In this document: positions 1,842 to 20,997 of the stretch, piece after piece
Layout of the letters: the number at the start of each line of letters is the position of its first letter
Numbering within the stretch: the first letter of the stretch is position 1
NCBI GenBank assembly: GCA_045863335.1
Contig: BTVY01000069.1
Coordinates: 1 to 23,703 of the forward strand
Length of the DNA: 23,703 nucleotides
Source: Candidatus Hydrogenedentota bacterium
Lineage (GTDB): Bacteria; Hydrogenedentota; Hydrogenedentia; Hydrogenedentales; SLHB01
Reading direction: 5' to 3'
Made by a program: the position numbers and the translations under genes
Notes under the pieces: model-generated
Told to the model about the DNA's origin: nothing
The model's input: only the letters and a program-made list of their open reading frames with translations
The model's database searches: none

Positions 1842-2450
1842 ATGGGTCTCGTCATTGATCTTCATCTCCATACCCGGCGCTACTCCAGGTGCAGCCGTAT
1901 CGACCCGGAGAATCTCGTCGGGCAAGCGGTGCGGGCGGGCATGGACGGCTTGGTGATCACGGAGCACCATCACCAGTGGAACGATGATGAGCTCGCGCAA
2001 CTAGTTGCAGGATCGGGACATCCGGGGTTCCTGCTCCTCGCCGGATTCGAATACACCTCGGCGCAAGGGGATTTGCTGGTCTACGGTCTTGACGCCGAGG
2101 CCGCCAAGGAGTTTCGGCCCGGCTGGCCGCCTGAGCGCGCGGCCCAGATGGTGCTGGAATTGGGCGGAGTGTGTGTGGCCGCCCACCCCACCCGGGCGGG
2201 ACTGGGCTTTGACGAGCGCCTGGAAACCTTGCCGCTCGCGGCCATGGAGGTCGCCAGCGTGAATCTGAAGGAACATGAACAGCGGCTCGCACGTTCTCTT
2301 TCCGAGACGCTGAAGCTCCCCGCAACGGCGAGCAGTGACGCTCACGATCTCCGCGATGTCGGAAGATATGCTACGGTATTCGAGGATTTAATACTTAGCT
2401 CGGCAGATTTGCAACGCGCCCTCCGAAATGGTAGATTTCAAGTGGCATAG
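1842..2450 (+). CDS. PHP-domain metal-dependent phosphoesterase
   Basis: PHP motifs DLHLHT, ITEH, GFE, AHP and SSDAH. Confidence 0.9.
   Translation: MGLVIDLHLHTRRYSRCSRIDPENLVGQAVRAGMDGLVITEHHHQWNDDELAQLVAGSGHPGFLLLAGFEYTSAQGDLLVYGLDAEAAKEFRPGWPPERAAQMVLELGGVCVAAHPTRAGLGFDERLETLPLAAMEVASVNLKEHEQRLARSLSETLKLPATASSDAHDLRDVGRYATVFEDLILSSADLQRALRNGRFQVA
2409..2437 (+). promoter_or_regulatory. Putative internal sigma70 promoter for lepB-lpxH
   Basis: TTGCAA (2409-2414), 17 nt, TAGATT (2432-2437) with an upstream TG; lies in the 3' end of the PHP gene. Confidence 0.45.
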
Positions 2451-2471
2451 CGCGCTGAGAGGAAACTACAG

Positions 2472-3110
2472 GTGGTGACTAATACCCCGCAGGCGTCAAC
2501 GGGAGCCAACGACGCCGCGCAAAACATTCGCCGCGAAGTCTTTGAGTTCGTGCGAATGGTCGTGCTTTTTCTCGTCTTGTTCCTGGTGCTCAAGACCTTC
2601 GTCATCGAAGGTTATGAAGTGCAAGGTCCCTCCATGGAACCCACCCTGCACAACAGCGAGCGCATCCTGGTCTTTAAACTTCCTCATGCCCTTGGGTTCG
2701 ACAGCATCGAACCCGGCGACATTGTCGTGTTTGACAGTACGGACGACGCCAACAAGCGCTACGTGAAGCGTGTAGTCGCCGAAGGGCCGCGTCCCGAGGG
2801 GGGGAATACGGTTTCGGCCGTGGGCGAAGGATCGTACGGTCCCCGCGACGTTTCGGTGAGTCTGGAACGGGGACGGCTCTTCGTGGACCACCATCTGGTT
2901 GAGGAACCCTATCTTCCTGAGGAAATCCGCGATACCTTCGACGCCTCGGACCCGGAACGGGAGCTGGGGGCAGGCCAGTACTATGTGCTCGGCGACAACC
3001 GTAACGTGAGCAAGGACAGCCGCAGTTTCGGGCCGGTGAACGACGACGTGGTTATCGGTAAAGCCGTCTTGCGCTTCTGGCCCCTGAGCAAGTTCAGTAT
3101 CCTTCGATGA
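2472..3110 (+). CDS. lepB: Signal peptidase I
   Basis: N-terminal TM segment, catalytic Ser box GPSMEPTL, YVKRV Lys box, and GDNR..SKDSR.FG box. Confidence 0.95.
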   Translation: MVTNTPQASTGANDAAQNIRREVFEFVRMVVLFLVLFLVLKTFVIEGYEVQGPSMEPTLHNSERILVFKLPHALGFDSIEPGDIVVFDSTDDANKRYVKRVVAEGPRPEGGNTVSAVGEGSYGPRDVSVSLERGRLFVDHHLVEEPYLPEEIRDTFDASDPERELGAGQYYVLGDNRNVSKDSRSFGPVNDDVVIGKAVLRFWPLSKFSILR

Positions 3111-3886
3111 ACACGGTCATCTTCTCGGACGTCCACCTCAACGTGGCGGCGGACGGTCGCGAGCGCATGGCCGAATTCGTGCGATTCCTCCGCTCCATCG
3201 ATCCTACCGAAACCGGGCGCGTCGTTATTCTGGGCGATCTCTTCGATTTCTGGTTCGAGTACCGGCACGTCATCTTCAGCGGATACTTCGATGTGCTGCG
3301 CGCCTTTGCGGACTTGCGCGACGGGGGCGTGCGCTTTGATTTCGTGTGCGGCAACCACGACTTCTGGGCGGGGCGCTTCCTGCGCGATCACCTGGATTTC
3401 CAGATCCACGAAAACCGGTTCCTGCTGGATCTCGGCGGGAGACGTGTGCTCTTCGTCCATGGCGATGGCATTAACCCGGAAGACGTGAGCTATCGCATCT
3501 ACAAGCGCATCGCCCGGTTCCCCCTGGTGGTTGCCTTGTTCCGCTTCATTCATCCCGATTGGGCCATGGCCATCGCCCAGGGCGTTTCGCGCGGCAGCCG
3601 TCATCTCAAGGCGGTAGACGACCCCAGCCAGGGTCCGGAGGTGAAGCCCCTCCAGAACTTCGCGCGGCGGGCACTGGAAGGGGGAGAAGCGGACGTGGTG
3701 ATGTGCGGGCATTCGCACTACCCGGTGATCGAGGAACATCCGGTGCCCGATGGGGCGGGGCTGTACATCAATACCGGCGACTGGCTGGCTCACCAGACCT
3801 ACGTGGAATGGGACGGATCGGACTTCCGGATGCGGTCATTCGACGGCGAATCCGCCTGCAAACCAGTAGCCACCGAGGGCGCATAG
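3107..3886 (+). CDS. lpxH: UDP-2,3-diacylglucosamine diphosphatase (calcineurin-like metallophosphoesterase)
   Basis: SDVHL, LGDLFDFW, GNHDF, HGD, GHSH and NTGDW motifs; ATGA overlap with lepB. Confidence 0.85.
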   Translation: MNTVIFSDVHLNVAADGRERMAEFVRFLRSIDPTETGRVVILGDLFDFWFEYRHVIFSGYFDVLRAFADLRDGGVRFDFVCGNHDFWAGRFLRDHLDFQIHENRFLLDLGGRRVLFVHGDGINPEDVSYRIYKRIARFPLVVALFRFIHPDWAMAIAQGVSRGSRHLKAVDDPSQGPEVKPLQNFARRALEGGEADVVMCGHSHYPVIEEHPVPDGAGLYINTGDWLAHQTYVEWDGSDFRMRSFDGESACKPVATEGA

Positions 3887-4759
3887 CGCGCCATACAGGA
3901 TCGCCAGCAGGAAAATCAGGATGCCCGCGCCGCGCTTGCGCGTGAAGGCGAGCACGTTGCGCCGGATGATCGTGCCCAGACTCGGGCTGATATCCGCCAC
4001 GATGACCGTGATGTTGTCTTTGCCGCCGTTGTCATTGGCCATGTTGATGAGGCGGCCCACAATCTCCGCGGGGGCGGCGTTGCGGCGGAATTCCTGGATG
4101 ATCTCGGCGTCCTTGCACATGTTGACCAGCCCGTCCGTGCACAGGAGCAACATGTCGCCGGGCACGATGTGCCAGATGTAGGTGTCGATATCCACCTGGG
4201 GATGAGTGCCGATGCTGCGGGTAACGATGTGGCGGCGGTTGTCCGATTCCGCTTCGGCCTTCGTCATCATGCCGAACTTGACCTGTTCGTCCACCCAGGA
4301 ATGGTCTTCGGTCTTGGCGATAATCTCGCCGTCCCGAATGTGGTAGCAGCGCGAATCGCCCACGTTGCCGATGTAGACTTTCCGCGGCGTGACCACCGCG
4401 CTCAACAGCGTCGTACCCATGGGGCGGCCCTTGGTCACGAGATCCGTGTTCGTCCTGTGGACGTTGTCGTTCGCCAGTTTGATCGCTTCGCGAATGACGG
4501 GAATGAACCCCTCATCCTCATCCGGATCCGCCGGGGGAGGTGGGGGCGCTTGTTTCAGCATGTCTTTGGCAATGGATACGGCGAGCTTGCTGGCAATCTC
4601 GCCGCCCATGTGCCCGCCCAAGCCGTCGGCGACACAGAGCAAGGCGCCTTCACGGAAAAGCTGCAGACCGGCCGTGTCGTCGCGGAAGACCCCGTAGTAG
4701 TCTTCGTTGTTTCTCTTGCGCCGCCCAATATCCGTCTGCGCCGCTATGTCAATACGCAT
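3836..4759 (-). CDS. PP2C/PPM-family Ser/Thr protein phosphatase (PrpC/Stp1-like) with a C-terminal TM anchor
   Basis: GRRKRNNED, VADGLGGH, MGTT, NVGDSRCY, LLCTDGL and GGKDNIT motifs; hydrophobic C-terminus; AGGAGG before ATG at 4759. Confidence 0.93.
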   Translation of the reverse strand: MRIDIAAQTDIGRRKRNNEDYYGVFRDDTAGLQLFREGALLCVADGLGGHMGGEIASKLAVSIAKDMLKQAPPPPPADPDEDEGFIPVIREAIKLANDNVHRTNTDLVTKGRPMGTTLLSAVVTPRKVYIGNVGDSRCYHIRDGEIIAKTEDHSWVDEQVKFGMMTKAEAESDNRRHIVTRSIGTHPQVDIDTYIWHIVPGDMLLLCTDGLVNMCKDAEIIQEFRRNAAPAEIVGRLINMANDNGGKDNITVIVADISPSLGTIIRRNVLAFTRKRGAGILIFLLAILYGALCALGGYWFAGGFAVE

Positions 4760-4787
4760 GCAGAACTGCCTCCTGCTGACTCGGGGA

Positions 4788-4817
4788 ACAGTAGCAAACA
4801 CCGTCCGACGCAGGCAA
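4788..4817 (-). promoter_or_regulatory. Possible sigma70 promoter for the PP2C gene
   Basis: Minus strand: TTGCCT, 18 nt, TACTGT with an upstream TG. Confidence 0.35.
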
Positions 4818-4876
4818 CCTTTTCCGGACATAACACTGGGGCCGCGCCGGATTGTTTCCCCTTGACACTAAACGGG

Positions 4877-4905
4877 TTGACAGGCTTCGGCCAAGCGACT
4901 AGAAT
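4877..4905 (+). promoter_or_regulatory. Near-consensus sigma70 promoter for the DnaA-like/coiled-coil gene
   Basis: TTGACA (4877-4882), 17 nt, TAGAAT (4900-4905). Confidence 0.7.
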
Positions 4906-4946
4906 CGCCCTTGGTTGACAAGCCGCCTGCGGGGAGCATTTTTCGT

Positions 4947-7664
4947 ATGAAAAGGTTCAACTTCGGCTCATTTCTGGTAGACGAGTCGAACGACCACGCC
5001 TTTCAGCTTTGCCGCGACGTGGCGGACCTCAAACCCGTCAGTCCCGTGCCAGTCGTCCTCCTCGGCGACGAGGGCTGCGGCAAGACGCATCTCCTCTATT
5101 CCATCGTAAATCGCGTGCGCGCGGGATCTTCCAAAACCGGGCTCGCATACGTGACGGCCTATGACTTCCCCGACCAGGTGCGCGCGCTCATCGACGATCC
5201 GTCTCCCGTAGAGCGTGCCCAGTCGGCCATCTTGCTTGTCGATCAGTTCGAGCGGTTTCGCGATCTCGTCGAAGAACTCGAAGCCGTGGTCCGGATATTT
5301 CTGGACAACAATCACTACGTCGTCATCGCCACGAGCGTGCATCCGGGCCGGCTGCATCACCTCAGCGAGAGTTTCAAGGCCCTGCTCGATTCCGGCCAGT
5401 TGGCGCAGATTGTGCCCAAGGGTACGGAAACCCAGATCGACCGGATCAAACGCCAGCTTCGCGAAGAAAGCGAATCGCAGCTTCAGAAGAAGCAGGAAGA
5501 GATCGAAGAGTTGCGCGCGCTCCTGAGCCGCGTCGGAAAAGACCTCGATCGCGACACCACGGCGACCATCAATGGGCTGCGCGAGGAACTCGACGCGGAA
5601 CGGATCGCGAAGGCCGAGGTCGTCAACAAGTTTGAGGTCGCGCGGGACCTCGCGGCGAGCGTGCAGGACGAGCTGGCCGCGGCCCGCGACGAAATTTCCG
5701 CAGCGCGCAAGCGCGCCGAAGAAGCCGAAGCGAAAGCGCGCGCCGCGGTCGAACAGGACCTGAACGAAACGCGGCAGCAGCTTACCATCGCGCAGGCAGG
5801 CGCCGCCGAGCGGGATCGCGAAATCGAGCGGCTCAAATCGGAGCTGGCGCAGTCTGAATCGTTGAAGGCGGCCATCGCGTCGCTCGAACAGGACCTGACG
5901 GAAGCCAGGGCGGAAGCGTCGGAGAACCTGGAAGCCGCTCGCGGACTGCACGAGAAATACGAAACCGTCCAGGAGCAGGTGTCGAGCGAAGCGGAGACGG
6001 CTGCGTCGTTGCGGACCCGTTTGGAAGCCTTAGAGGCGCAACTTGCGGAACGCACCGAAGCGGAATCGGCCCTCCAAACCGAACTCGAAACAGTCAAGTC
6101 GGAATCGGCGCAACGCGCGGCGGAGCTGGATTCGGCGCGGCAAGAGATCGCCGATCTCAGGGCAACGTCCGAAGGCATTTCCCAGTCGGAACAGGAAATT
6201 CGCGACGAATTGAATCGTCTCCGCACGGAACTCAGCGCGGAACAGGGCAAAGCGCGCGAGTTGCAGGAGCGTTTCGAGCGGGCGGAATCAGAGGCCGGGT
6301 CGCATGCCTCGGCGGCGGGCGACCTGCGCGCACAGTTGGAGTCAGCGCGAACGGAACTCAACACGCAAATCGATACCTTGCGCCGCGAAAAGTCCGTCGC
6401 CGAAGCGGAGCGCGACGAGGTCGTCCAGCGGGCGGAAGGTTTGCTGGAACAAATCGGCGGCCTTCGCGCGGAGTACCGCGCGGTCGAGCATGAACAGCAA
6501 TCACGCGTCGCTGCGTTGGAAGCGGCCATCGAAGCCCAGGCCGCGCAGGCCATCGACCGGGAGGAAGTGGTCCGCCTTCAAGCCCTCGCGGAACAGGCGG
6601 GCGCGGAGTTGGATGCCCTGCGCCAGGCGTCGGCCGCGGAAGCGGAGGAGTTGCGGCAACAGGCCGCGGACTTGCGTGAGAAACTGCAACGCGCGGAGCA
6701 GGAACGCGCCACGTTGGCGTCGGAAAAAGACGGCGCGTTGCGGGATGCCGAGGAATTGCGCAACGCTTTCGAAGCGGCCAAGAGCGACGCGGAACGGGAG
6801 ATCGCGGAACTGCGCGGCGTGCTCGATCAGACGGCCAACGCGCAGGAAACGCTCAACGCGCAACTGCGGGAAATCGGCGCGGAACGCGACCGCTTGCAGG
6901 AGCGGGTCGCCACCTTGGAAGAGGACCGCGATCAATTCGACATGGTCCGGCAGGAACTCATTCGCGAACGGGAAGCGGTCCAGACGCAACTCGACGAAAC
7001 GCACGGCACGCTCGATCGGGTGCAGCAAGAGTTCGCGTTGGAACGCGACCAGTGGCAATCCCGCGTCGACGAGGCCCAGCGCGAGGTCGATGCCGCGCGC
7101 ACTGAATTGGCCGGTGCGAACGACGCGATGCAGGCGCGTATCTCCGATCTCGAATCCGCGTTGCAGGCGAAGGATGGCGAACTCGCGTCCTTACGAAACG
7201 AAATCGAGTCGCGCACCGGCGAGTTGGCATCCTCTCTCGAAGCAAAGGAAGCGGAACTTGCCCGCGTCCGCGCCGAGGTCGAAGGACGTGCCGGCGAACT
7301 GAGCGAAGCCCTTCGCGCGAAAGAGGAGGAATTGGCCGCGGCCCGCCGCGATGCTGAGACACAGATCGCGGAAGCCACCGCGCGCGCCGACCGCCTCGAA
7401 GCGGACATGGCCGAGATGCGCCGCGCCTCGGATACCATGCGCCGCGCCAGCAGCGACGCCGGGCAACGCCTCGAAGGCGCCGCTCGCAGCCTCGCCGACA
7501 TCGCCACGGGCCTGGTCGCCGCGCTCCAAAGCGTCAACCCCAACACCGATGACGACTCCGGCGACGCCGCCATGCGCTCCGCCCACGACGCCGTCACCGG
7601 CGCCCTCGAAAAACTCCGCCCCCTCGAAGACCTCGAAACCTTCGAAGAAGACCACTCGATCTGA
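4947..7664 (+). CDS. DnaA/Hda-type AAA+ domain fused to a very long coiled coil (not a canonical DnaA)
   Basis: FNFGSFLVDESNDHAF and VVLLGDEGCGKTHLLYSI match the DnaA domain III start and Walker A. The remainder is E/A/R/L/Q-rich heptad sequence. GGGGAG precedes ATG at 4947. Confidence 0.85.
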   Translation: MKRFNFGSFLVDESNDHAFQLCRDVADLKPVSPVPVVLLGDEGCGKTHLLYSIVNRVRAGSSKTGLAYVTAYDFPDQVRALIDDPSPVERAQSAILLVDQFERFRDLVEELEAVVRIFLDNNHYVVIATSVHPGRLHHLSESFKALLDSGQLAQIVPKGTETQIDRIKRQLREESESQLQKKQEEIEELRALLSRVGKDLDRDTTATINGLREELDAERIAKAEVVNKFEVARDLAASVQDELAAARDEISAARKRAEEAEAKARAAVEQDLNETRQQLTIAQAGAAERDREIERLKSELAQSESLKAAIASLEQDLTEARAEASENLEAARGLHEKYETVQEQVSSEAETAASLRTRLEALEAQLAERTEAESALQTELETVKSESAQRAAELDSARQEIADLRATSEGISQSEQEIRDELNRLRTELSAEQGKARELQERFERAESEAGSHASAAGDLRAQLESARTELNTQIDTLRREKSVAEAERDEVVQRAEGLLEQIGGLRAEYRAVEHEQQSRVAALEAAIEAQAAQAIDREEVVRLQALAEQAGAELDALRQASAAEAEELRQQAADLREKLQRAEQERATLASEKDGALRDAEELRNAFEAAKSDAEREIAELRGVLDQTANAQETLNAQLREIGAERDRLQERVATLEEDRDQFDMVRQELIREREAVQTQLDETHGTLDRVQQEFALERDQWQSRVDEAQREVDAARTELAGANDAMQARISDLESALQAKDGELASLRNEIESRTGELASSLEAKEAELARVRAEVEGRAGELSEALRAKEEELAAARRDAETQIAEATARADRLEADMAEMRRASDTMRRASSDAGQRLEGAARSLADIATGLVAALQSVNPNTDDDSGDAAMRSAHDAVTGALEKLRPLEDLETFEEDHSI

Positions 7665-7741
7665 GAGACAGCAGGGACACCTCCGTAAGACGGGAATGAT
7701 TCCCCCCCGTGCTACTCTTGCTTCCGTATTTCCTATCCGTC

Positions 7742-9175
7742 TCAATTCCGCTCTTCTCCGAGGAAGGCGAAATCGCGTTGCCGGTATATGGCGTCGGAAC
7801 GGATGAGCCGGCGGGTTTGGAGAGCCATGGCGATGGCGATCACCAATGCGCAAACACCATAAACGGGCATCGCTGCTCCACTGCCCAATCCGGTAGTCAC
7901 GACAAATCCCCACAAGAAGAACGCGCCGCCGAGGACCCCGACGCCAGACCGCGGGAATAGGAGATAGCCCAGCGCCGGCACCCACATGAGCAGCAGCGCC
8001 CAACCGGCATGAATGGGCAGACCCAACCCGAATGCCATGACGAGCACGGCCGCGCAAGCGACGATGCCGGTAGCGATGGGCGTCGCGAGCATGAACGCGA
8101 CGATCCGGTCCGCTCGCCAAGGCAGCATCCGCAGTGCGGCGAGCGAAGCCAACCATTGGGCGAGCCGCCGAACCGTCCAAAACACGGCCAGGATAGGCAG
8201 CCAACCGGCCATCGCGACCAGGAGTTCGCGCTGCCCGGGGTCGTATCCGCGCAGGTCCAGGAAAATGGCGATGAGGACCGCGCCTACGATGGGTATCGAA
8301 AGCGCCAATGCGCCCTGCCGCACCGCTTCCCGGCACACCAACTCCCAATAGGCTGGCCGCCGCGACCCGTGTGTGGGAGGCGGAAGTCTATCCGGGACAG
8401 AGAATGTGACACCAACCTTGTGCGCGCAAACGTGTCGAATCAACAACTGCTGCGCCGCCGTGCGTGCGGATAGGACCAGCGCGACCGCGACCACCCCTTC
8501 CGCAGCGAACAGCATGGCGGCAAGATACCAAGGCAGACGAACGATCTCGTTGCGGACGAGCACGTCAAAATTGAAATAGCACACGTATCCGAATGCGACC
8601 GCGGCAATCACGATGATGACCATATAGAAACTCGGTCCGCTGCCGTGCAACAGAAACTCGCGCCATGATCTCGACGCGGGCGGACCGAGTAGCTTCGCGG
8701 CATGAACCATGACGCTGCAAAACGCCGCGACGACCAGCGCGTTCACACCATTCGCGAACAACCGGGGCAGGAACGTATTGTCGGGAAGTCCGAGCCCCCA
8801 CAGCGCGGCGGGAAAAATCGCAAGAATGAAGAACGCCAGCGCCGGCAATACGACGGCCTCATACCACATGGCCCGCGCGACGGTCCGAGACGGCACACCT
8901 AAACCCAATACCGTGGCGAGGCGTCGATTCGTTGTCAGGTCGTGCATCATCATGGCGACACCGATGGACGTCATTCCCAAAATCCCGATCCACGGACTGG
9001 GGTTTCGGACCGGACCGCTCAGGAGCGCCATAAACGCCACGTTGAAATACGACATGACCAGGAACCCCCAGTTCCACCGCGCATACGCCAGCACCAGCGC
9101 CCGCACCGTCTGTGCCTCCGTCCATGTGTGCTTTGGGGAAGTCAGCACCATCTCGCGGTATGTTTCCTGATTCAT
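7742..9175 (-). CDS. Polytopic membrane protein, ABC-2-type permease-like (paralog 3)
   Basis: 477 aa with many hydrophobic segments; two coupling-helix-like motifs (LGLGVPSR, LRMLPWR); last gene of the GntR-ABC operon. Confidence 0.7.
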   Translation of the reverse strand: MNQETYREMVLTSPKHTWTEAQTVRALVLAYARWNWGFLVMSYFNVAFMALLSGPVRNPSPWIGILGMTSIGVAMMMHDLTTNRRLATVLGLGVPSRTVARAMWYEAVVLPALAFFILAIFPAALWGLGLPDNTFLPRLFANGVNALVVAAFCSVMVHAAKLLGPPASRSWREFLLHGSGPSFYMVIIVIAAVAFGYVCYFNFDVLVRNEIVRLPWYLAAMLFAAEGVVAVALVLSARTAAQQLLIRHVCAHKVGVTFSVPDRLPPPTHGSRRPAYWELVCREAVRQGALALSIPIVGAVLIAIFLDLRGYDPGQRELLVAMAGWLPILAVFWTVRRLAQWLASLAALRMLPWRADRIVAFMLATPIATGIVACAAVLVMAFGLGLPIHAGWALLLMWVPALGYLLFPRSGVGVLGGAFFLWGFVVTTGLGSGAAMPVYGVCALVIAIAMALQTRRLIRSDAIYRQRDFAFLGEERN

Positions 9176-9754: not shown

Positions 9755-11131
9755 CTATCCTGTCCTGCCGAACATATCGCCGACCGTATCAGCGATAACG
9801 TCCCGTTTTCCGAACAACGCCCCATCGCCGCAGAGATTCTGGTACAGATACACGTAGGCACCGAGCCAAAGTAGGGTGGCATATGGGAGGTAGAGGCCAA
9901 TAGCCCAAGGTGATTGCCAGTGCCAGAAGGCGAGCGCCAGGGGCATCGCCAGGATTCCGCCTGCGATTCCGCCGAAAGGCTGTCCGACCGTCTTGTTCAA
10001 TGGCAGCGCGACCGAACAACACCCTCCGAGCCCCAAAACACAAGCGATCGTGTTCGCGACCGGCCAACCGAAATAGAACGATGCCGCGACTAGAGCCGCC
10101 AGCACGGACATGATAAGTGGCAAGACCAATGAGAGTACGAGCAGCGCCTGCTGCGAGCGGTGCAAGGGCAAACATCGAATGACCCGGTAATCCATTTCCT
10201 TGAATCGCACTGAATACGTGAGGACCAGGACGAAGGGAACAACCAAAACGAGAGTCGGAGTGTCGGAATCGACGTCTGCGACTGTCAAATGGGCGTACAC
10301 GGGGATCAACACTGCGACGCTAATCACACACAGGCTCGCGAAAACCAGACAGTCCAACCATAACCCGTAAAACGTCAAGGCGGACCGCCTCTTGTAGGAG
10401 CCCCGTCCGATGCCAAAGGTTGGAAAAGCCAATTCCGGGGCCGACTTCATCGTACCCACTCCCAGAACGTGAGGAGCGAGGAAGTACGATAGCGCGACGA
10501 GTACTGCCGAAACACAGACCATCCCCACGTACGCGGGGAGATAGCCCTTATCGCTTCCTATGAAGACCCACCCTGCAGCGCCAACGAAGGCAAAGGTGCT
10601 GAGCCAGCCTCGAATCGAAGTAAGATTGGCCCATGCATCGCTTGGTGAATCTTCGTGAGGTGAGAGCCATCTTGCGAAAGGGATCACGGTGGCCAGCCCC
10701 ATCGCGATCACGCATTCCGGAACGACCTGCGCAACCCATTGCCAAGATCCTTCGCCTATCAACAGGGCGCCTAGACGAATTACGAACTGGATCGCTCCGT
10801 AAAGCAGGGGTGCGAGTGAGACGGTCATGAACCAGATGAGGTTCGCCTTCTGCCGCGACGATAGGGGGAGCATCGCAAGCCCCGCTCCGGCCTCCTTTTT
10901 CGAAATACGGTCGAGCACCAGAACGGACCAAAGAACGGCAATGAATCCGCCAGCACCGGGATGAATGAAGAAGATGAGCATCGATGCCATTCGCCGTTCC
11001 CGGCTCACCAACCACTTCCCCAATTCCCACATGGCCCGGCCCGACGCCAGCCATTCGCCGGGCGGCGCGTCGAACGGTTCCATGCTGTTGGGACGCGTTC
11101 CCGCCGGGATTGGGGTCGCATCAGTTCTCAT
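9755..11131 (-). CDS. Polytopic membrane protein, ABC-2-type permease-like (paralog 2)
   Basis: 458 aa with many TM segments; motifs LAMLPLSSR and IRCLPLHR. The start codon is uncertain. Confidence 0.7.
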   Translation of the reverse strand: MRTDATPIPAGTRPNSMEPFDAPPGEWLASGRAMWELGKWLVSRERRMASMLIFFIHPGAGGFIAVLWSVLVLDRISKKEAGAGLAMLPLSSRQKANLIWFMTVSLAPLLYGAIQFVIRLGALLIGEGSWQWVAQVVPECVIAMGLATVIPFARWLSPHEDSPSDAWANLTSIRGWLSTFAFVGAAGWVFIGSDKGYLPAYVGMVCVSAVLVALSYFLAPHVLGVGTMKSAPELAFPTFGIGRGSYKRRSALTFYGLWLDCLVFASLCVISVAVLIPVYAHLTVADVDSDTPTLVLVVPFVLVLTYSVRFKEMDYRVIRCLPLHRSQQALLVLSLVLPLIMSVLAALVAASFYFGWPVANTIACVLGLGGCCSVALPLNKTVGQPFGGIAGGILAMPLALAFWHWQSPWAIGLYLPYATLLWLGAYVYLYQNLCGDGALFGKRDVIADTVGDMFGRTG

Positions 11132-11180: not shown

Positions 11181-11658
11181 CGAAGGCATGAAGGAAAGGA
11201 GCGTTCGAACCACCGCCGTGCATGGGCTCTTCGATGTGGCGCAGGCGTCCCGCCTGCAACGGTTCGCGGGGGTGACGTGGTACGCCCAAAGATGCAGGCG
11301 GGACGCCAGCGCTACATGCTGCCGTTGTTTACATGCTTGTCCCCGTCGCGAAAGCACCATCCGCGCCAATCCGCTGCATCCGCGCGACCGGCATTCGGCA
11401 GTTTCGTTCCATGCGTTCCCTGCGATTCCGTACGGCCCCGGCCTTCCGTGCGTTCCCTGCGTTCCTTTCGTGTCCTTCGTGCCTTCGTGGCACATCCTGC
11501 CCGTACTGCTCCCTCGCGACCGCATTACCCGTTTGCCTCGACTTCCACGCAACACCCCCACGCGCCGCTCCGGCACGCTGAAGGCGTGCAGCAACCCTAG
11601 CCAGGGGCAACGCCCCTGGAACACGCGCGCACCCCACCACAAAGCCCTGTAGGGGCGA
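11181..11658. repeat. Composite intergenic repeat, copy 2
   Basis: Direct repeat of about 9240-9722; offset is 1941 bp in the core. Confidence 0.92.
11236..11315. repeat. REP doublet (REPIN-like), GTGG/GTAG type
   Basis: GTGGCGCAGGCGTCCCGCCTGCA (11236-11258) and inverted TGCAGGCGGGACGCCAGCGCTAC (11293-11315). Confidence 0.75.
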
Positions 11659-11792
11659 AACCAGGTACGGGTTCACAGCGTCTTTGCCAATTCGTCTTCT
11701 TTCGCCCTTACAGGGCTCCAATAAGGCGCGGCACCTTACCAGGGGCGCCACTTCGTTCTGCCCCTGGCTAGGGTTGCGCGGCGCCTTCAGCG
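11576..11792. repeat. ~217-bp nested palindromic element (MITE/REP-like)
   Basis: Three concentric arm pairs: 11576-11586/11782-11792 (11 bp perfect), 11591-11609/11759-11777 (19 bp perfect), 11643-11660/11700-11717 (18 bp, one mismatch). Confidence 0.85.
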
Positions 11793-11883
11793 CCGGGATT
11801 CCGGTCGGTGGACGGATATCGCGTCTACCCGCCATTGTGATTCGTCGTTTGCGGGTTGCCACGCGCTTACGTCTACGGCATCC

Positions 11884-11979
11884 CTTTGCGACTCTGCGTC
11901 TTTGCGTCTTTGCGTTGAGGCACGTGCGATGCTCGATGGGACTTATGGGACCGATGGGTCTCATGGATGTGATCGGCGC
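11884..11979. repeat. Short tandem repeats: an 8-mer (CTTTGCGT) array followed by a 9-mer (nATGGGnCn) array
   Basis: CTTTGCGA CTCTGCGT CTTTGCGT CTTTGCGT at 11884-11915; GATGGGACT TATGGGACC GATGGGTCT CATGGATGT at 11935-11970. Confidence 0.7.
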
Positions 11980-11981
11980 GT

Positions 11982-13310
11982 TCATCGGACGCGCTCCGTA
12001 AACGCGGCGTCCCATTTACCGCGATGGTAGGCGCTGCTGGAGCCGAGCAGGATGTACACGGCAATCAGCGTTATCGAGCCGAAGATTGCCGTCACCACGT
12101 AGTAGAACCCCGTCGGCCACGGCAGAGCGATGAACAGCAGCACGACACCGAGAAATAGCACGCCTTCAAACAAGACAAAGAAAGTCTCATCGGTCACGAT
12201 CTGCGCGGCGCTGCAAAGGCCGTGCACGCTCATGGCCGCAAGGACGATGCCGAGCGCGTACAACGGGTTCCAGCCGTACCACGCGCTGGCGATGGGGACC
12301 ATGAGCGTGGACGGCACGAACGCCGTCGCCGGATATGCCAAGTACAAGGCGGTCTGCCGCAGACGCGAGATGGGCAGGAAACGAACGGTGTGTACGTCCA
12401 ACGCGCGGGTCACGTCGGCGCAACCGATGACTAACAAGGCGAACACCCAGACCCCGTCGACACGGACGTTCGCGATCCGATGAGCCACTTCGTTCATCAC
12501 GAGGAAGAGGAAACCCAGGCTCACGCCAAGCCAGAGATGTCCGCGCCACATCCACAGGAACTGCGCGGGCCAAAACCCCGAGGGCATGGTGTCCGGCTCG
12601 TTGGAGGCCGCCGTATCTGCGACCGCGCGCCGTGCCAATCGGCACGCGGGACTCCACGCGGCCTCACGTTCGAGATACGACCAGATCGTCACGCCGATCG
12701 AAGTGAGCAGGCCCGTTGCCATGAGCGGCGTCCAAGCGGGCTGGTCTAACGTCATCAGCCACGCCAACCAGAACCACGAGCCACCGAACGCGAGTTGAAG
12801 GAATTTCCGCCCCAGGGTCTTCAACGACGATAGCGAGGATGTAGTTGTGGGGGACTTATGCAGCAGGCCTTGGCCCTTAGAAAGGCTCGCCGCAGCGCCC
12901 GTCAACAGAATGGCGCGACGCAGAATCCAAGCCCAATCGGCATCGCTCAGGCCCACCATGCCCGGCAAGGACTTTTGAATCGTGTGCACCAAAGGCAGGG
13001 ACAAGACGGCGAACGCCCAAAACAACGTGGCATAGGTTTTCGCGGAAACCGGCGTCGCCAACAACGCGCGCGCCCGCTGATCGAGCGAACGCGAGAGCCA
13101 CCACGCGGCAACCGCGACAATGCCGGCAACCGCCGGAAAGAATGACTCCCCACCAAAGGACCCAAGGCCAGCTGCCACACATAACGCAAGAATGGGTCCG
13201 AAAATCGACACAAGCCATGTGACCAGGTGTCTATTCATAACGACCTGTCCCGCCCCATAAGTCCAGGCTGCGCCGTTAGGCAGTTGCGTTCCTTTCGTTT
13301 GGGATGGCAC
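11982..13310 (-). CDS. Polytopic membrane protein, ABC-2-type permease-like (paralog 1)
   Basis: 442 aa; GTG start 1 nt after the ATPase stop; motifs LLATPVS and VRFLPISR. Confidence 0.75.
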   Translation of the reverse strand: MPSQTKGTQLPNGAAWTYGAGQVVMNRHLVTWLVSIFGPILALCVAAGLGSFGGESFFPAVAGIVAVAAWWLSRSLDQRARALLATPVSAKTYATLFWAFAVLSLPLVHTIQKSLPGMVGLSDADWAWILRRAILLTGAAASLSKGQGLLHKSPTTTSSLSSLKTLGRKFLQLAFGGSWFWLAWLMTLDQPAWTPLMATGLLTSIGVTIWSYLEREAAWSPACRLARRAVADTAASNEPDTMPSGFWPAQFLWMWRGHLWLGVSLGFLFLVMNEVAHRIANVRVDGVWVFALLVIGCADVTRALDVHTVRFLPISRLRQTALYLAYPATAFVPSTLMVPIASAWYGWNPLYALGIVLAAMSVHGLCSAAQIVTDETFFVLFEGVLFLGVVLLFIALPWPTGFYYVVTAIFGSITLIAVYILLGSSSAYHRGKWDAAFTERVR

Positions 13311-13311
13311 A

Positions 13312-14196
13312 TCACCGATCCTTCACCAGCCCGACGAACAACTCCTCCAACGTTACCGGCGTCGTCGTGATATCCGTCAGGCCTTGGGCTTCGAGGTCCT
13401 CGACGGGATGTTTCGTGCTGTCGACGAGGAGGCGCCAGCGGTCGCCGTCGTGGCGTTGGACGACGAGGCCTTCGGTGGCCTTGGGTTGTTGGCCGTTGGG
13501 GGAGAGGCAGTCGACCATGCGGTAGCGTTCGACCAACTCGGCGGTGGACCCTTCGACAAGGAGTTTGCCGCGGTCGATGATGCCGATGTGGTCGGTGAAG
13601 CGCTGGAGGTCGTCGAGGTTGTGAGACGAGATCAGCACGGTGCGTTCTTCGTCCTGAACGGCGTCGAGGAGTTCGGTGAAGAGTTCCCGTTTCGAGATGG
13701 CGTCGAGCCCGGCGGTGGGTTCATCGAGGAGGAGCAGGGCGGGCCGGTGCGCGAGCGCGACGATGAGCGCGAGTTTCGTGCGCGACCCGTAGGACAAGGT
13801 GGCGATCTTGTCCGTCCATCCGATCTTCAGGCGGTCCAACAGTTCCGCGCAATAGGTGTCGTCCCAATCCGCGTAGAAGGCGCGGATGAACCCGATGAGC
13901 CGGCGCACGGTGCCCCAGGCGTTGAAGTTGAGGTCGGGGCTGACGTAGCCGACGCGCTTCTTCATCTCGACTTCGTCGCGGATGTGGTCGAACCCGAACA
14001 CGTGGATGTCGCCGGCCTCCTTCGCGCCCATGCCCATGATGAGGTCGATGGTCGTCGTTTTGCCCGCGCCGTTCGCGCCGATGAGGCCGTAGATGGCGCC
14101 CTTGGGCACGTTGAGATCGAGCGGGCCGAGGTGAAACCCGGGAAAGGTCTTCTCCAGGCCGCGGATACGGATCGCGTCAGCGGTTGCTATCATCAT
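13312..14196 (-). CDS. ABC transporter ATP-binding protein (YtrB-like)
   Basis: Walker A GANGAGKTT, signature-like LSYGSR, Walker B LLLLDEPT, H-loop ISSH; GGGAGG before ATG at 14196. Confidence 0.95.
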   Translation of the reverse strand: MMIATADAIRIRGLEKTFPGFHLGPLDLNVPKGAIYGLIGANGAGKTTTIDLIMGMGAKEAGDIHVFGFDHIRDEVEMKKRVGYVSPDLNFNAWGTVRRLIGFIRAFYADWDDTYCAELLDRLKIGWTDKIATLSYGSRTKLALIVALAHRPALLLLDEPTAGLDAISKRELFTELLDAVQDEERTVLISSHNLDDLQRFTDHIGIIDRGKLLVEGSTAELVERYRMVDCLSPNGQQPKATEGLVVQRHDGDRWRLLVDSTKHPVEDLEAQGLTDITTTPVTLEELFVGLVKDR

Positions 14197-14217
14197 GCGT
14201 GTGTCCTCCCAAACGTC

Positions 14218-14747
14218 AAATTCGAAATCCGAATGTCGAAATCCGAAACAAATTCGAATGACCCAATAACGAAATGTTCCAAACGGAAACTTGTCCAACA
14301 ACGTCTTGATCGCTTGATTGGCCGGCGGTCTGTGCAAACAACAGAACATCCCCCTTGATCCCCCTTCGAAGGGGGAATTTCGTCAAGCGCAGTTTTCCAG
14401 GGGAAGTCAGGTGCACTATCCAAGTCTGGGCACCGAGCAACTTATGACGCAACGCTTCGCGTTGCGTTCGCTTGAACAGTCCGCCTGGATTCGCGCCGCG
14501 TCGTCTCGCGCTATCCGATCGACGACGCTCGGCAAATTCCCCCTTCGAAGGGGGATCAAGGGGGATGTTCCCCGCGGTTCGATTCATCAAAACCGCCTCC
14601 TTTGTTGCCGCGCCGCGCATCGTGTATTTCGGTTTCAACGCTCTGCTCCCAACGTCAATGCCTTGCTCAGTGACGGCGAAGGCAAGCCTTCGCACTCCAC
14701 ATGGCCGAACCTTTCGAATTTTGGTCCGTCGAATTTGTTTCGGATTT
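14218..14747. mobile_element. Non-coding nested inverted-repeat element (MITE-like) between gntR and the ABC ATPase
   Basis: Outer perfect 19-bp IR at 14239-14257/14729-14747 within heptamer-like arrays; inner perfect 37-bp IR at 14344-14380/14534-14570. Mobility is inferred, not shown. Confidence 0.6.
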
Positions 14748-14755
14748 TCTTCCCA

Positions 14756-15187
14756 CTATTTCTTCCCCGCGGTTTTTGCCAGCGCTTCGGGTTGTTCGAG
14801 GAGCCGGTGCACGAGCTTCAGCAACTCCTCGTCCGTCATACCGGCTTCACGGCCTTCGCGGAGGGCTTCGGCGATGAGCGACGCGGCTTGCGCGCGTTTG
14901 GCTTCCCGGCTGCGGGCGGCGCCTTCTTCGGACACGAAGGTGCCGAGCCCTTGTTTGCGGTAGATGATCCCTTCGCGTTCGAGTTCTTCGTAGGCCCGTT
15001 TTACGGTGATGAGGCTGACGAGCAACTCCTCCGCCAGCGCCCGGAACGACGGCAAGGGCGCGCCGGGGGCGAGACGCCCCTCGCTGATCTCCCGTTTCAC
15101 GCCGTCGACGATCTGCTGGTACAGAGGCCCCGGCGCCGCCGCGGAAATGGGGCGGAGGAAGAGTTTTTTGTTCGGTTCGTTGGTCAT
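14756..15187 (-). CDS. GntR-family transcriptional regulator, YtrA subfamily
   Basis: PLYQQIVDGVKREI...LPSFRALAEELLVSLITVKRAYEELEREGIIYRKQGLGTFV winged HTH with a short helical C-terminus, upstream of an ABC ATPase. Confidence 0.93.
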   Translation of the reverse strand: MTNEPNKKLFLRPISAAAPGPLYQQIVDGVKREISEGRLAPGAPLPSFRALAEELLVSLITVKRAYEELEREGIIYRKQGLGTFVSEEGAARSREAKRAQAASLIAEALREGREAGMTDEELLKLVHRLLEQPEALAKTAGKK

Positions 15188-15189
15188 CA

Positions 15190-15214
15190 GGTGTATATAT
15201 AGCATATATACACC
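15190..15214. promoter_or_regulatory. YtrA-type GntR operator
   Basis: Perfect IR GGTGTATATAT-AGC-ATATATACACC 2 nt upstream of the gntR ATG; fits the GT..TA...TA..AC style of YtrA-subfamily sites. Confidence 0.85.
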
Positions 15215-15233
15215 ATGCTGTCTAGTGGCTTTT

Positions 15234-15272
15234 GACACGGAAAGGCACGGACCTACACGGACGGACACGGAC
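15234..15272. repeat. Four CACGGA units at 10-bp period
   Basis: CACGGA starts at 15236, 15246, 15256 and 15266. Confidence 0.75.
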
Positions 15273-15299
15273 AGGATCGACGCGGCGCCGGAGGGGGTC

Positions 15300-15332
15300 T
15301 CCCCCTGCAAAGCGTGCATGGTTGCAGGGGGA
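15300..15332. promoter_or_regulatory. Candidate upstream activator site for the NtrC-family regulator
   Basis: Perfect 11-bp IR TCCCCCTGCAA-N11-TTGCAGGGGGA, with further TGCA boxes, about 50-80 bp upstream of the sigma54 -24 box. Confidence 0.5.
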
Positions 15333-15380
15333 AGCGTGACTGGTTTGCAGCCTTTCCCGGCCAAATCCCTGCAAATACGC

Positions 15381-15396
15381 TGGCACGGCGCTTGCC
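15381..15396 (+). promoter_or_regulatory. Sigma54 (-24/-12) promoter
   Basis: TGGCAC-GGCGC-TTGCC matches TGGCAC-N5-TTGC; a sigma54 activator is encoded downstream. Confidence 0.88.
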
Positions 15397-15496
15397 CTTT
15401 ACCGGGCGACAGTTGAACCGGTAACGAGGCGGGCGGAGGCCCCGACGGTTGGGGCTTCGCGCTTATGGTGCTCAAAAATCGAAAGGACGGTGTCTT

Positions 15497-15871
15497 ATGG
15501 TGTGGAACACGTGGATGAAGATGACGGCGGTGGCGGCGGTTCTGGCGCTGGCAATGGCGGCGGGTCCCGTCATGGCGCAGCAGGGAACGCCTTCGGGCAA
15601 GGGCGTGAACTATGTCGACGCGGACGGCGACGGCGTTTGCGACAACTACGGCACGTCGGCCTGTAACGGGTGCCAAGGCGGCAAGGGCCAAGGCAAGGGC
15701 CAGGGCGTGTGCGATGGCACCGGCAAGGGTCAGGGCAAAGGCAAGGGCCAAGGCGTTTGCGACGGTTCGGGCAAAGGCCAGGGCAAAGGCCAGGGCAAAG
15801 GCAAAGGTACCTGCGACGGCACCGGCAAGGGTCAAGGCAAAGGCAAAGGTAAGGGCAAAGGCGGCAAGTAA
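15497..15871 (+). CDS. Small secreted Gly/Lys/Gln-rich protein with a DxDxDG motif and CDG[TS]G repeats
   Basis: GAAAGGA SD; signal-peptide-like N-terminus ending PVMA; NYVDADGDGVCDN; six Cys; GKGQ repeats encoded by varied synonymous codons. Confidence 0.85.
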   Translation: MVWNTWMKMTAVAAVLALAMAAGPVMAQQGTPSGKGVNYVDADGDGVCDNYGTSACNGCQGGKGQGKGQGVCDGTGKGQGKGKGQGVCDGSGKGQGKGQGKGKGTCDGTGKGQGKGKGKGKGGK

Positions 15872-15956
15872 GCTTGAGGCGACGCCCGAAGCCGTGGAAA
15901 ATGACACGCTAAGGGGCCGCGCGGGCAACCAGCGCCCAACCGTAAAGTAACCGCGA

Positions 15957-17276
15957 TTGAAACCGACATCACCAAATCGAAATCGATGGATCGTCCCGGT
16001 GGTCGCCCTGGTGGCGGCCGCCGGGCTGCTTTGGTTTGTCCGCGACTACCGCGCGCAAGTCGCCGCCGACACGCAGGTCGCCCTCGAACGTGGGGAGACC
16101 GTCCTGGAATCGTTGGCGGCCGGGCTGCGGGGCAACACGCGGATGGGACGATACCGGCCGGAATATCTGACGGCGATCTTCGAGGAGTTGACCGATTCCC
16201 AGCGTATCGCGGGCGTGCGGTTGACGGATGACGAGGGCGTCGTGGTCGCAGCGGGAGGACACTCCGAGTTTCCCGAAGCCGCTCCGAATAGCGCGCCCGC
16301 GTGGAGCGGCGATCTGCTCGTCCTCGCGCGGTCCATTGAGTTTGAAGAGCACGGTCCGGGTATGGGCGCGGGGCGCGGGCGTATGCGCGGGGCCATGATC
16401 GATGCGGACAGTGTCGAATGGGGGACGGGGCGTTACACGCTCGCCGTGGCCGTCAATACCGAATGGCTCGCTGAGGCGCGACAGCACGAGCGGCGTCAAC
16501 TGATTGTGGCGTCGGTCGTGTGGGTGGGACTCGTTTGCCCCCTCGTGTTGGCCATGCTCCGGGCGCGGGAACGGCACCGCCGACTCACAACCGACTTGCT
16601 CCTCGCTGAAGCGCGCGCGCAACGGCAGGAAGAGCTGGCGCGCATCGGCGCCGGGCTTGCCCATGAGACGAAGAATCCCCTCGGGATCGTGCGCGGGCTG
16701 GCCCAGTCCATCCACGACACGCCCAACTTGGCGCCGGATACGAAACGCATGGCGCGGGATATCGTCGACGAAGCGGATCGCACCGTCGGCCAGATCAACT
16801 CCTTCCTCGACCTCGCGCGTCCAACGGAGCCACAGCTTGGCGCAGTCGACGTGGATGCGCTGTTCGAAGGGCTGGTGCCGCTGTTGAAAAGCGAAGTTCC
16901 CGGCAATTCCGTCGCGTTCGAGATTGAGCCCGTCGGAGTGTCCGTCTCAGCCGATGAAAACCTGTTGCGCCGCTGTGTGCTGAACCTCGCCATCAACGCC
17001 ATGCGCGCCATCGACGGGGAAGGCACCGTTACGCTTGGCGCGGCGCACCATGGCGACGACGTCGAACTCTACGTGGCCGACACAGGCCGCGGCATCGCGC
17101 CGGACGATTTGCCTCGCGTCACAGAACCATACTTTGGCCGTTTCGAAGGCGGCACTGGATTGGGTCTGGCTATCGTCGATCACATCGTGCGGGCTCACGG
17201 CTGGACGCTGCACATCGACTCGACGCTAGGGATAGGCACGCGCGTGTCCATCCGCGGCCTGCGTGCGGTAGGATAA
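15957..17276 (+). CDS. Membrane sensor histidine kinase (NtrB/ZraS-like)
   Basis: Two TM segments, H-box LAHETKNPL, N-box NLAINA, G1 DTGRGI, G2 GTGLGL. The TTG start is uncertain. Confidence 0.93.
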   Translation: MKPTSPNRNRWIVPVVALVAAAGLLWFVRDYRAQVAADTQVALERGETVLESLAAGLRGNTRMGRYRPEYLTAIFEELTDSQRIAGVRLTDDEGVVVAAGGHSEFPEAAPNSAPAWSGDLLVLARSIEFEEHGPGMGAGRGRMRGAMIDADSVEWGTGRYTLAVAVNTEWLAEARQHERRQLIVASVVWVGLVCPLVLAMLRARERHRRLTTDLLLAEARAQRQEELARIGAGLAHETKNPLGIVRGLAQSIHDTPNLAPDTKRMARDIVDEADRTVGQINSFLDLARPTEPQLGAVDVDALFEGLVPLLKSEVPGNSVAFEIEPVGVSVSADENLLRRCVLNLAINAMRAIDGEGTVTLGAAHHGDDVELYVADTGRGIAPDDLPRVTEPYFGRFEGGTGLGLAIVDHIVRAHGWTLHIDSTLGIGTRVSIRGLRAVG

Positions 17277-20733: not shown

Positions 20734-20793
20734 GGGGAGATATGCCTTTCCTGAGTCGTCCGGTGCGAGGCAGGGGTACGACGGACTGGCGTC

Positions 20794-20822
20794 AGGATAG
20801 GCGGGTCCGGTGGAGATTTCAA
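20794..20822 (-). promoter_or_regulatory. Putative proximal promoter of hflKC
   Basis: Minus strand: TTGAAA, 17 nt, TATCCT. Confidence 0.55.
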
Positions 20823-20833
20823 TGATTGGCGCC

Positions 20834-20997
20834 AGAAAGGATCCATTCGGCCGTGAATGGGTCCGGCATAAACCCGAATATGCCGCACAACGCCAGGAAC
20901 ACATACCGCCGGCGTCGAATGATTGCGAACGCCGGCGGACCCACCAGGACCAAGTCCGAACCAATTGCCCAGATTCGGACGTGTTTGGAGTCCCAAC
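20834..20997 (-). ncRNA. Candidate structured small RNA or long structured hflKC leader
   Basis: Four consecutive stem-loops lie between an upstream promoter (21004-21032) and a final hairpin followed by UUUCU. No credible ORF. The strand is not certain. Confidence 0.4.

Follow-up and report, generated by a model that had tools for sequence, protein, structure and literature searches.

The closest described relatives of the protein treated here are DnaA itself and Hda (HdaA), a DnaA-derived AAA+ protein of ~230 aa that lacks domain IV, retains both lid and arginine finger, and carries its clamp-binding motif, of the QL[SD]LF/QLSLPL type, at the N-terminus beside the AAA+ module. Two further regulators serve as a working analogy only, having no kinship with this protein in sequence or fold: YabA of Bacillus subtilis, a ~120-aa protein with a zinc domain that forms a coiled-coil hub bridging DnaA and the sliding clamp, and CrfC of Escherichia coli, a clamp-binding, dynamin-like NTPase with a helical stalk. 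In FrzS/AglZ-type proteins, a signaling-type (receiver) domain at the N-terminus precedes a long coiled coil. Here, we describe a gene that places a DnaA-type AAA+ base at the end of a several-hundred-residue coiled coil, found in a 23,703-nt stretch of DNA from a Candidatus Hydrogenedentota bacterium (contig BTVY01000069.1; the whole stretch is called the window below). An initial annotation, made from the letters and their translations, had picked out this combination and proposed that the protein tethers, caps or inhibits DnaA. Its observation was confirmed by our analysis, and its interpretation is partly supported. The architecture is new for a known module, the role is probably new as well, and we tentatively read the protein as a nucleotide-loaded tether linked to replication. 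The analysis also brought out features that the annotation had not described: an HD_3 neighbor, a Gln in Walker B, the lack of Arg at the box VII columns, conserved rod islands, and tail motifs.

The gene lies in a forward open reading frame (ORF), 4911/4947..7664, which encodes 905 aa plus a stop when read from the ATG at 4947 (protein P0001; feature coordinates are collected in Table 1). Pfam profile PF00308 (Bac_DnaA) matched residues 2–150 over profile positions 3–158 of 162, with a cut-off of 23 bits; the head alone scored 57.0 bits and the whole protein 52.5 bits (E = 8.4e-14). The runner-up Pfam family, NACHT, reached 22 bits, under its own cut-off, and all other NTPase families likewise stayed below theirs. 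Among NCBIfam models, DnaA ranked first (62–67 bits) and Hda lower (32 bits). Both remained far from full-length assignments, with 62.2 bits against a cut-off of 343.9 for the DnaA equivalog TIGR00362 and 32.1 bits against 194.8 for the Hda model TIGR03420; P0001 has 905 aa and no lid. A sequence search of the PDB returned only DnaA among its best matches.

An AlphaFold2 (AF2) model of the head, built from 32 family heads, had a pLDDT of 89 and a pTM of 0.81, with strands at residues 36–40, 64–69, 93–98, 124–129 and 151–155. When this model was ranked by Foldseek, DnaA domain III came first (TMq 0.70–0.75), followed by Hda (0.64–0.66) and then by clamp-loader subunits. Profile–profile alignment (hhalign) of the family heads with 21 DnaA domain III sequences from the same phylum gave 99% probability, E = 4e-18 and 24% identity, and a query of the ESM Atlas with the homologue P0082 returned only Hydrogenedentota PF00308 clusters. 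The head is of the DnaA type, as the annotation had proposed for the first ~160 aa, and no other ATPase family fits it better.

The protein shares with DnaA domain IIIa the AAA+ base fold, a GxxGxGKTHLL P-loop, the Walker B Asp, an N-terminal F..F....N motif and a polar residue closing β4. It differs from DnaA in lacking domain I, the linker, the lid (IIIb, with sensor II) and the DNA-binding domain IV. Neither DnaA_N nor Bac_DnaA_C matched the whole protein at E ≤ 1 in Pfam, the PF00308 match begins at residue 2, and in the AF2 model the chain goes on after β5 as a helix from residue 162, beyond which the coiled coil begins. No transmembrane (TM) segment was found, the highest 19-residue Kyte–Doolittle mean being 1.10. 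The annotation's statement that domain I, domain IV and a TM segment are missing was thus upheld.

Residue conservation was counted in an alignment of 32 family heads (A1). The P-loop, GDEGCGKTH, conforms to the generic AAA+ Walker A pattern GxxxxGK[ST], and a Ser or Thr occupies position 129, at the end of β4, in 32 of 32 heads. The generic AAA+ Walker B pattern is hhhhD[DE], and this protein reads LLVDQ. At the second acidic place, where DnaA carries Asp, position 100 is Gln in 22 heads, Glu in 4, Asp in 2 and another residue in 4, and the protein has DQ for DD. The helix matching DnaA box VII is changed at both columns that hold the arginines R281 and R285 in E. coli DnaA. Arg occurs at position 142 in none of the 32 heads, and position 146 is Leu in 17, Ile in 4, Val in 3, Thr in 2 and Arg in 2, the residues of the remaining 4 being unlisted. 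Relative to DnaA, 4 residues are missing from the stretch aligned to the initiator-specific helical insertion between β2 and β3, and 3 from the loop that follows Walker B.

Judging by this conservation, selection acts strictly on the P-loop and on the Asp that binds Mg. Because Walker A and D99 are invariant, position 100 is Gln and the box VII Arg is missing, the head would be expected to bind ATP but to hydrolyze it poorly; we infer selection for nucleotide binding but not for efficient hydrolysis. The statement that there is no arginine finger is valid only for the columns aligned to DnaA. Both the box VII Arg and the lid that mark DnaA are absent. As judged from its sequence, the protein cannot work in the textbook Hda mode, because the Hda/DnaA finger column holds no Arg and the lid is missing. 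The N-terminal clamp motif of Hda is likewise absent, P0001 beginning MKRFNFGSF.

Behind the head, the neck leads into a rod that the annotation had described as continuous coiled coil. The protein is free of proline from residue 158 to residue 864, and Ala, Glu, Arg, Leu and Gln together make up 66% of the rod. Hydrophobic periodicity of 3.5 residues was strong (z = 3–6.7) across most of residues 155–870, with dips at 197–238, 505–574 and 645–700. The absence of proline and the heptads bear out the coiled coil, and the three dips make it nearly continuous rather than continuous. The rod contains two conserved islands, the second of which is present in 78 of 103 family members. The segments from the neck to island 1 and from island 1 to island 2 span 45–389 and 22–280 residues, respectively, and their lengths are uncorrelated (r = −0.02, n = 74). 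Near-equal arms were found in only 10 of 74 members. These independent lengths speak against a symmetric fold-back and fit a parallel in-register dimer, and we infer that the rod chains are paired in this way. A symmetric SMC/Rad50-like hairpin with island 1 at its apex was considered and rejected on account of the uncorrelated arms, despite the midpoint position of island 1 in P0001.

The acidic tail of the protein, also noted in the annotation, is a family trait, with a median net charge of −7 over the last 50 residues. Several tail motifs are clade-specific: a D-x-[SA]-I C-terminus in 31 of 190 proteins, PLxDLxPL in 16 and HHVE[EQ]L in 21. A further motif is QxxLF, which resembles the sliding-clamp-binding consensus. 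It occurs in 27 of 179 tails, where 1.9 would be expected and the highest of 200 shuffles gave 8, and in 4 rods. A profile of the motif matched 31 of 179 tails, no rods and no shuffled tails. In the members that carry it, QxxLF is often followed by D/E and by a second motif, FE[SA]LP. Some members thus add to a domain-IV-less AAA+ module a motif of this kind, as Hda does; unlike in Hda, it lies hundreds of residues away from the head, across the rod. In P0001, DLETFE resembles DLHLFD of the family member at locus L041, by eye alone.

Two motif counts were extended to the 5034 ORFs of the genome. Only 4 end in D.[SA]I, and the D-x-S-I C-terminus was rejected as a genome-wide sorting signal; within the family, DxSI ends showed no clean split by adjacency to HD_3. 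Q..[LM]F falls within the last 25 residues of 7 ORFs, and in 4 of these at the very end: Cas2, a DprA-like protein, a PA0069-family radical SAM protein and one family-less protein. The first three end in G-Q-x-x-L-F (Cas2 at C3:75434-75787, the DprA-like protein at C12:69935-70936 and the radical SAM protein at C21:32739-33803 of genome G000). A Cas2 with a clamp-binding-like C-terminus is an unusual case.

The distribution of the head-plus-coil architecture shows that the protein is no isolated oddity. A word-indexed search returned ~100 proteins of 498–976 aa at E = 6e-97 to 2e-36, followed by a drop to E = 4e-13, where unrelated Gemmatimonadota proteins start. The 12 family matches with a taxon label comprised 11 from Candidatus Hydrogenedentes/Hydrogenedentales and 1 labeled 'Nitrospiraceae bacterium'. 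A profile search of 1.84 billion representatives found 205 proteins at E ≤ 1e-30, and in 150 of 150 among the matches listed the head begins within the first 53 residues. Family length ranges from 168 to 1460 aa (median 617, 190 proteins); the 11 members under 400 aa are probably fragments. In member P0203, an MshEN domain (E = 4.3e-19) forms the C-terminal end and Walker A is degenerate, with GRT for GKT.

In genomes of the phylum (Candidatus Hydrogenedentota, a name taken from the labels on homologues), family-level matches scored at least 128 bits, whereas DnaA and other paralogues scored at most 86 bits. By this measure, the family is carried, in addition to a canonical dnaA, by 114 of 135 genomes, which are related and therefore not independent counts. 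It is single-copy in most, with a second copy in 4, and it is missing from the taxonomic families f13 (0/10), f4 (0/2), f14 (0/1) and f15 (0/1), from genus g29 (0/2) and from a few single genomes. Genomes of the same genus have open frames of 891–952 aa with heads 81–100% identical. The head/rod junction, at which the annotation had asked for read coverage, is spanned by a 704-nt contig of an RNA library covering 5061–5764 with 0 differences and, in a different study, by an 880-nt contig of a DNA run covering 4858–5737. Another RNA-Seq observation is that contigs of run X2 fall in 30 of 30 bins of positions 4700–7700, although such libraries can contain DNA. Relatives are annotated by NCBI as 'DnaA/Hda family protein' or 'hypothetical protein', and some by JGI as 'chromosome segregation ATPase', a label that mirrors the coiled coil only. 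The gene is a genuine member of a conserved, lineage-restricted family of DnaA paralogues. In agreement with the annotation, which had not recognized a characterized family, the titles and abstract openings returned by literature searches contained no description of a DnaA head with a coiled coil, of DnaA paralogues in Hydrogenedentes or of MshEN–DnaA fusions.

The genome contains exactly three PF00308 loci: a canonical DnaA of 461 aa, whose separate presence the annotation had called for, the coiled-coil protein, and a 724-aa MshEN–DnaA paralogue. No stand-alone PF00308 gene of Hda size is present in the genome. The paralogue (contig C14, locus L002 1258-3432, minus strand) lies directly upstream of a GspE/PilB-like ATPase gene. 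Its N-terminal MshEN domain scored 54 bits against a cut-off of 38 on a model of the c-di-GMP-binding motif, and is followed by a low-complexity linker of ~350 aa and then by an entire DnaA domain III (PF00308, 181.6 bits) that keeps the DD, SRF and lid, without domain IV. On the Hda model, it reached 105.6 bits. Like the coiled-coil protein, it is a domain-IV-less DnaA derivative, and MshEN recurs at the C-terminus of P0203; unlike the coiled-coil protein, it keeps DD, SRF and the lid, carries its c-di-GMP-binding-type MshEN domain at the N-terminus and has no coiled coil. By these features, the paralogue may be a c-di-GMP-linked Hda-like protein and appears a better Hda-like candidate than the coiled-coil protein. 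Frames of 700–940 aa with DnaA-type matches recur in relatives, including lineages without the coiled-coil family.

The commonest neighbor of the family gene is one for an HD_3/YfbR-like phosphohydrolase, which lies directly downstream on the same strand in 62 of the 114 family-bearing genomes, across 10 taxonomic families. The pair was seen in 16 of 32 loci examined, with an intergenic distance of −4 nt in 5 of the 16 and of at most 50 nt in most others. A Pfam survey of 170 neighboring ORFs from the 32 loci found PP2C, metallophosphatase and TPR genes upstream and HD_3 downstream.

From these observations, we propose that the protein is a nucleotide-loaded tether, linked to replication, rather than an initiator, and give this reading a probability of about 0.35. 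Replication seems the most coherent arena because the head belongs to the initiator clade, the tails of some members resemble clamp binders, the operon partner is of a (deoxy)nucleotidase-like family and the genome has no stand-alone Hda. The head would bind ATP with slow or no turnover and act as a docking module. The neck helix would leave the base at the position of the lid and continue into a rod of several hundred residues, and a parallel dimer would have both heads at one end and both acidic tails at the opposite end. The heads may engage an initiator-clade AAA+ partner, for which DnaA and the MshEN–DnaA paralogue are the candidates, and the tail motifs a second partner, possibly the sliding clamp via QxxLF(D/E) in ~1/6 of members; in P0001, the corresponding element would be PLEDLETF...DHSI. 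Ancestrally, the gene may have been co-transcribed with that for the HD_3/YfbR-like phosphohydrolase. The overall logic would be Hda/YabA/CrfC-like. A more far-reaching version, which we consider doubtful, is that the family constitutes a new class of replication-cycle regulator, in which an ATP-locked DnaA-derived head on a parallel tether would connect an initiator-clade AAA+ assembly (DnaA or the MshEN–DnaA paralogue) with the sliding clamp or with some other landmark, as a giant analogue of Hda/YabA that evolved independently in Hydrogenedentota and was ancestrally coupled to a deoxynucleotide phosphohydrolase.

Several results weigh against the tether reading. QxxLF is absent from the P0001 tail with its PLEDLETF, which was unmatched by the motif profile, as were the tails of its close relatives, and the putative clamp assignment goes by the motif consensus. 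The basic residue at position 144 (26/32; Arg in 19, Lys in 7) and R135 (29/32) could act in trans, and an acidic residue at position 73 (24/32) adjoins a Glu column that is invariant in the phylum's DnaA and that we take to be catalytic in E. coli DnaA. The Pfam survey of the 170 neighboring ORFs returned no dnaA, dnaN, par or fts gene, and no DnaA box lies near the gene; the sole candidate with one mismatch, TTATCCACA at 17808, is far away, and 1.8 would be expected by chance. The family is missing from f13, f4 and g29, which retain DnaA-type genes, and, being lost where such genes stay, it is therefore dispensable. Both recurrent neighbors are independent of it: HD_3 is present in f13 (10/10) and is split from the coiled-coil gene in this genome, where it lies on contig C14, and in the nearest relatives, and 133 of 135 genomes have PP2C, among them those of all lineages without the family. 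A complex prediction of the head (residues 1–170) and 2 ATP with the phylum's DnaA domain III, run without controls, scored 0.00 against a mark of 0.32 and weighs neither way.

The main rival, which we regard as a real but minority prospect, is a cytoskeletal or polar coiled-coil scaffold outside replication, in which the head would be an ATP-sensing or oligomerizing end, possibly under Ser/Thr phospho-regulation. The long rod with its conserved islands and variable spacers fits this, as does the C-terminal MshEN domain of P0203. FrzS/AglZ-type proteins share the layout of a globular regulatory head, an extended coiled coil and a tail that varies; their heads are receiver domains and not AAA+, and nothing points to a common function. 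A divergent PP2C phosphatase gene accompanies the coiled-coil gene, as the annotation had noted, across a gap of 116 nt. It is Stp1-like and has a C-terminal hydrophobic stretch (by eye from the translation), a putative membrane anchor. PP2C is adjacent and divergent in 31 of the 114 family-bearing genomes (median gap 230 nt) and is retained in 12 genomes of the taxonomic family f3. The annotation's suggestion of phospho-control is weakened by this limited adjacency and by the persistence of PP2C in every lineage that lacks the family. No recurrent kinase, cytoskeletal or division genes were found among the 170 neighboring ORFs of the 32 loci, and a scaffold leaves the strict conservation of the DnaA-type P-loop and the QxxLF tails of other members unaccounted for.

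A direct cap or inhibitor of DnaA oligomers, in which the head would offer an ATP site to DnaA's arginine finger while lacking a finger of its own, and so terminate the chain with the rod as an anchor to cell architecture, we judge unlikely. The DnaA-type base, the intact P-loop, the lack of Arg at the box VII columns and the absence of an Hda-sized PF00308 gene speak for such a cap. Against this, identity to the phylum's DnaA is only 24%, the deletions fall at the initiator-specific insertion and in the loop after Walker B, the gene has neither linkage to dnaA or dnaN in the 32 loci nor DnaA boxes nearby, the family has been lost in lineages that retain DnaA, and the MshEN–DnaA paralogue, with its DD, SRF and lid, is a better Hda-like candidate. 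An adaptor for the HD_3 phosphohydrolase is quite unlikely. In that case, the tail or rod would recruit or regulate a (deoxy)nucleotide-hydrolyzing enzyme while the head senses ATP. The frequent pairing of the genes, often with a 4-nt overlap, would be explained, and a hydrophobic–Phe–acid tail motif was found in 10 of 16 HD_3-adjacent loci versus 2 of 16 others, these loci being related and the counts not independent. The enzyme occurs without the family in f13, its gene stands apart from the coiled-coil gene here and in the closest relatives, and its substrate is assigned only by the family name (NF003009, 27 bits against a cut-off of 122).

An SMC-like chromosome organizer or anti-phage NTPase is very improbable. 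The JGI labels and weak matches to SMC, Rad50, LmuB and JetC hint at it; all such matches fall in the coiled coil and far under their cut-offs (SMC, 60 bits against 567), the ABC head, hinge and symmetric arms of SMC, Rad50 or MukB are absent, the best PADLOC match in the head had E = 3.6e-4 and 17.7 bits with the stronger ones all in the rod, and the gene is mostly single-copy, near-core and stably placed. An assembly chimera or non-coding ORF, for which the odd architecture and nothing else speaks, is effectively eliminated by the same-genus frames, the 205 representatives and the two contigs that span the junction.

Table 1. Features of the coiled-coil protein gene and its divergent neighbor, with coordinates in the window and residue counts from the 32 heads of alignment A1.
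Feature	Coordinates	Strand	Basis and remarks
DnaA-head coiled-coil protein, coding sequence	4947..7664	+	905 aa; relatives share the start MKRF
DnaA-type AAA+ α/β base (domain IIIa-like), residues 1–160	4947..5426	+	PF00308, AF2, Foldseek, hhalign
Walker A, G40-DEGCGKTH-48	5064..5090	+	G45, K46 and H48 in 32/32; T/S47 in 32/32
Walker B ILLVDQ, residues 95–100	5229..5246	+	D99 in 32/32; Gln100 aligned to the second D of DnaA DD
Family-specific HPGRL motif, residues 132–136	5340..5354	+	R135 in 29/32, P133 in 29/32, L136 in 30/32
Helix matching DnaA box VII, residues 142–150	5370..5396	+	Arg columns are Ser142 and Leu146, with Lys144 between
Neck helix, residues 162–196	5430..5534	+	Exits the base where the DnaA lid (IIIb) begins and ends at Gly197; AF2 helix 162–184 (model end); moderately conserved in the family
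Coiled-coil rod, residues 197–850	5535..7496	+	No Pro; heptad periodicity; only coiled-coil-type matches in Pfam, NCBIfam and PADLOC
Rod island 1, residues 485–533	6399..6545	+	Family hidden Markov model (HMM), 38.8 bits; present in 83/103 members, 100/190 in a second count
Degenerate rod island 2, residues 798–815 (AARRDAETQIAEATARAD)	7338..7391	+	Loose pattern match; below the HMM threshold here
Acidic tail, residues 851–905, ending in LRPLEDLETFEEDHSI (7614-7661)	7497..7661	+	13 acidic and 3 basic residues
Shine–Dalgarno-like GGGGAG	4931..4936	+	10 nt ahead of ATG 4947; direct sequence reading
Sigma-70-like promoter match TTGACA-17-TAGAAT	4877..4905	+	11/12 positions; motif match only
Divergent Stp1/IreP-like PP2C phosphatase	3836..4831	−	PF13672, 70 bits; NF033484, 226.4 bits against a cut-off of 230

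The ATG at 4947 is likely the start of the coiled-coil protein, and is preferred because relatives begin MKRF or MKRY and GGGGAG precedes it. The near-consensus promoter claimed in the annotation holds as a motif match; a motif scan found 1 promoter-like site where 0.2 would be expected. Repeats within the DNA of the gene were limited to two weak families of 30–31 nt.

The HD_3 gene of this genome (contig C14, locus L048 1495-2085, minus strand) lies 8 nt behind a gene for an MshEN+HDOD protein (2093-3532, minus strand). MshEN–HDOD as a general upstream partner of HD_3 was rejected, having been found at 0 of 6 further HD_3 loci and 0 of 32 family loci. Further upstream of PP2C are genes for a metallophosphoesterase, a signal peptidase I and a PHP-domain protein, and the metallophosphoesterase gene (3107-3886, plus strand) converges with that for PP2C, with a 51-nt overlap by ORF boundaries. 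The PP2C orthologue beside the family gene in genome G004 (C8:300840-301813) is split into two matches, with an in-frame TAA, and those of G001 (C732) and G002 (C217) have 2 in-frame TGA codons inside the match. These stops could reflect pseudogenization, an assembly error or a match extending upstream of the true start.

On the other side of the gene, ORFs 7742-9175 and 9755-11131 (minus strand) encode proteins of 477 and 458 aa that are hydrophobic-rich by eye and had no Pfam match. ORFs 11329-12015 and 11982-13310, also without a Pfam match, and an ABC ATPase gene (13312-14349) are on that strand too, and beyond them lies a GntR regulator gene (14756-15928). This group may be an ABC-type export system with unrecognized permeases. 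A histidine kinase gene (15957-17276) and a sigma-54 activator gene (17282-18583), both on the plus strand, follow; two genomes of the same genus keep this pair, 3.6–5 kb downstream of their family gene. An SPFH/flotillin-like pair lies at 18593-19678 and 19678-20964 (minus strand). Outside the phylum, proteins P0104–P0121, of ~650 aa and from Gemmatimonadales where labeled, carry two DnaA domain III modules in tandem without domain IV; in P0105, for example, PF00308 matches twice, with 328.8 bits. They are another re-use of the initiator ATPase.

DnaA-derived AAA+ modules have been known as an initiator, in DnaA, and as an inactivator, in Hda; here, the bare base is the end domain of a rod. 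This re-use is kept in most of the phylum, which is uncultured and in which an MshEN-fused, domain-IV-less DnaA paralogue is found as well. The idea is testable with recombinant protein, the parts being small and well defined (head 1–200 and tail peptides). If the head still binds initiator-clade partners, the family would represent a new coupling of initiation or fork clamps with the supply of nucleotides or with cell architecture. Otherwise, the initiator ATPase fold would have been exapted as a structural nucleotide sensor.

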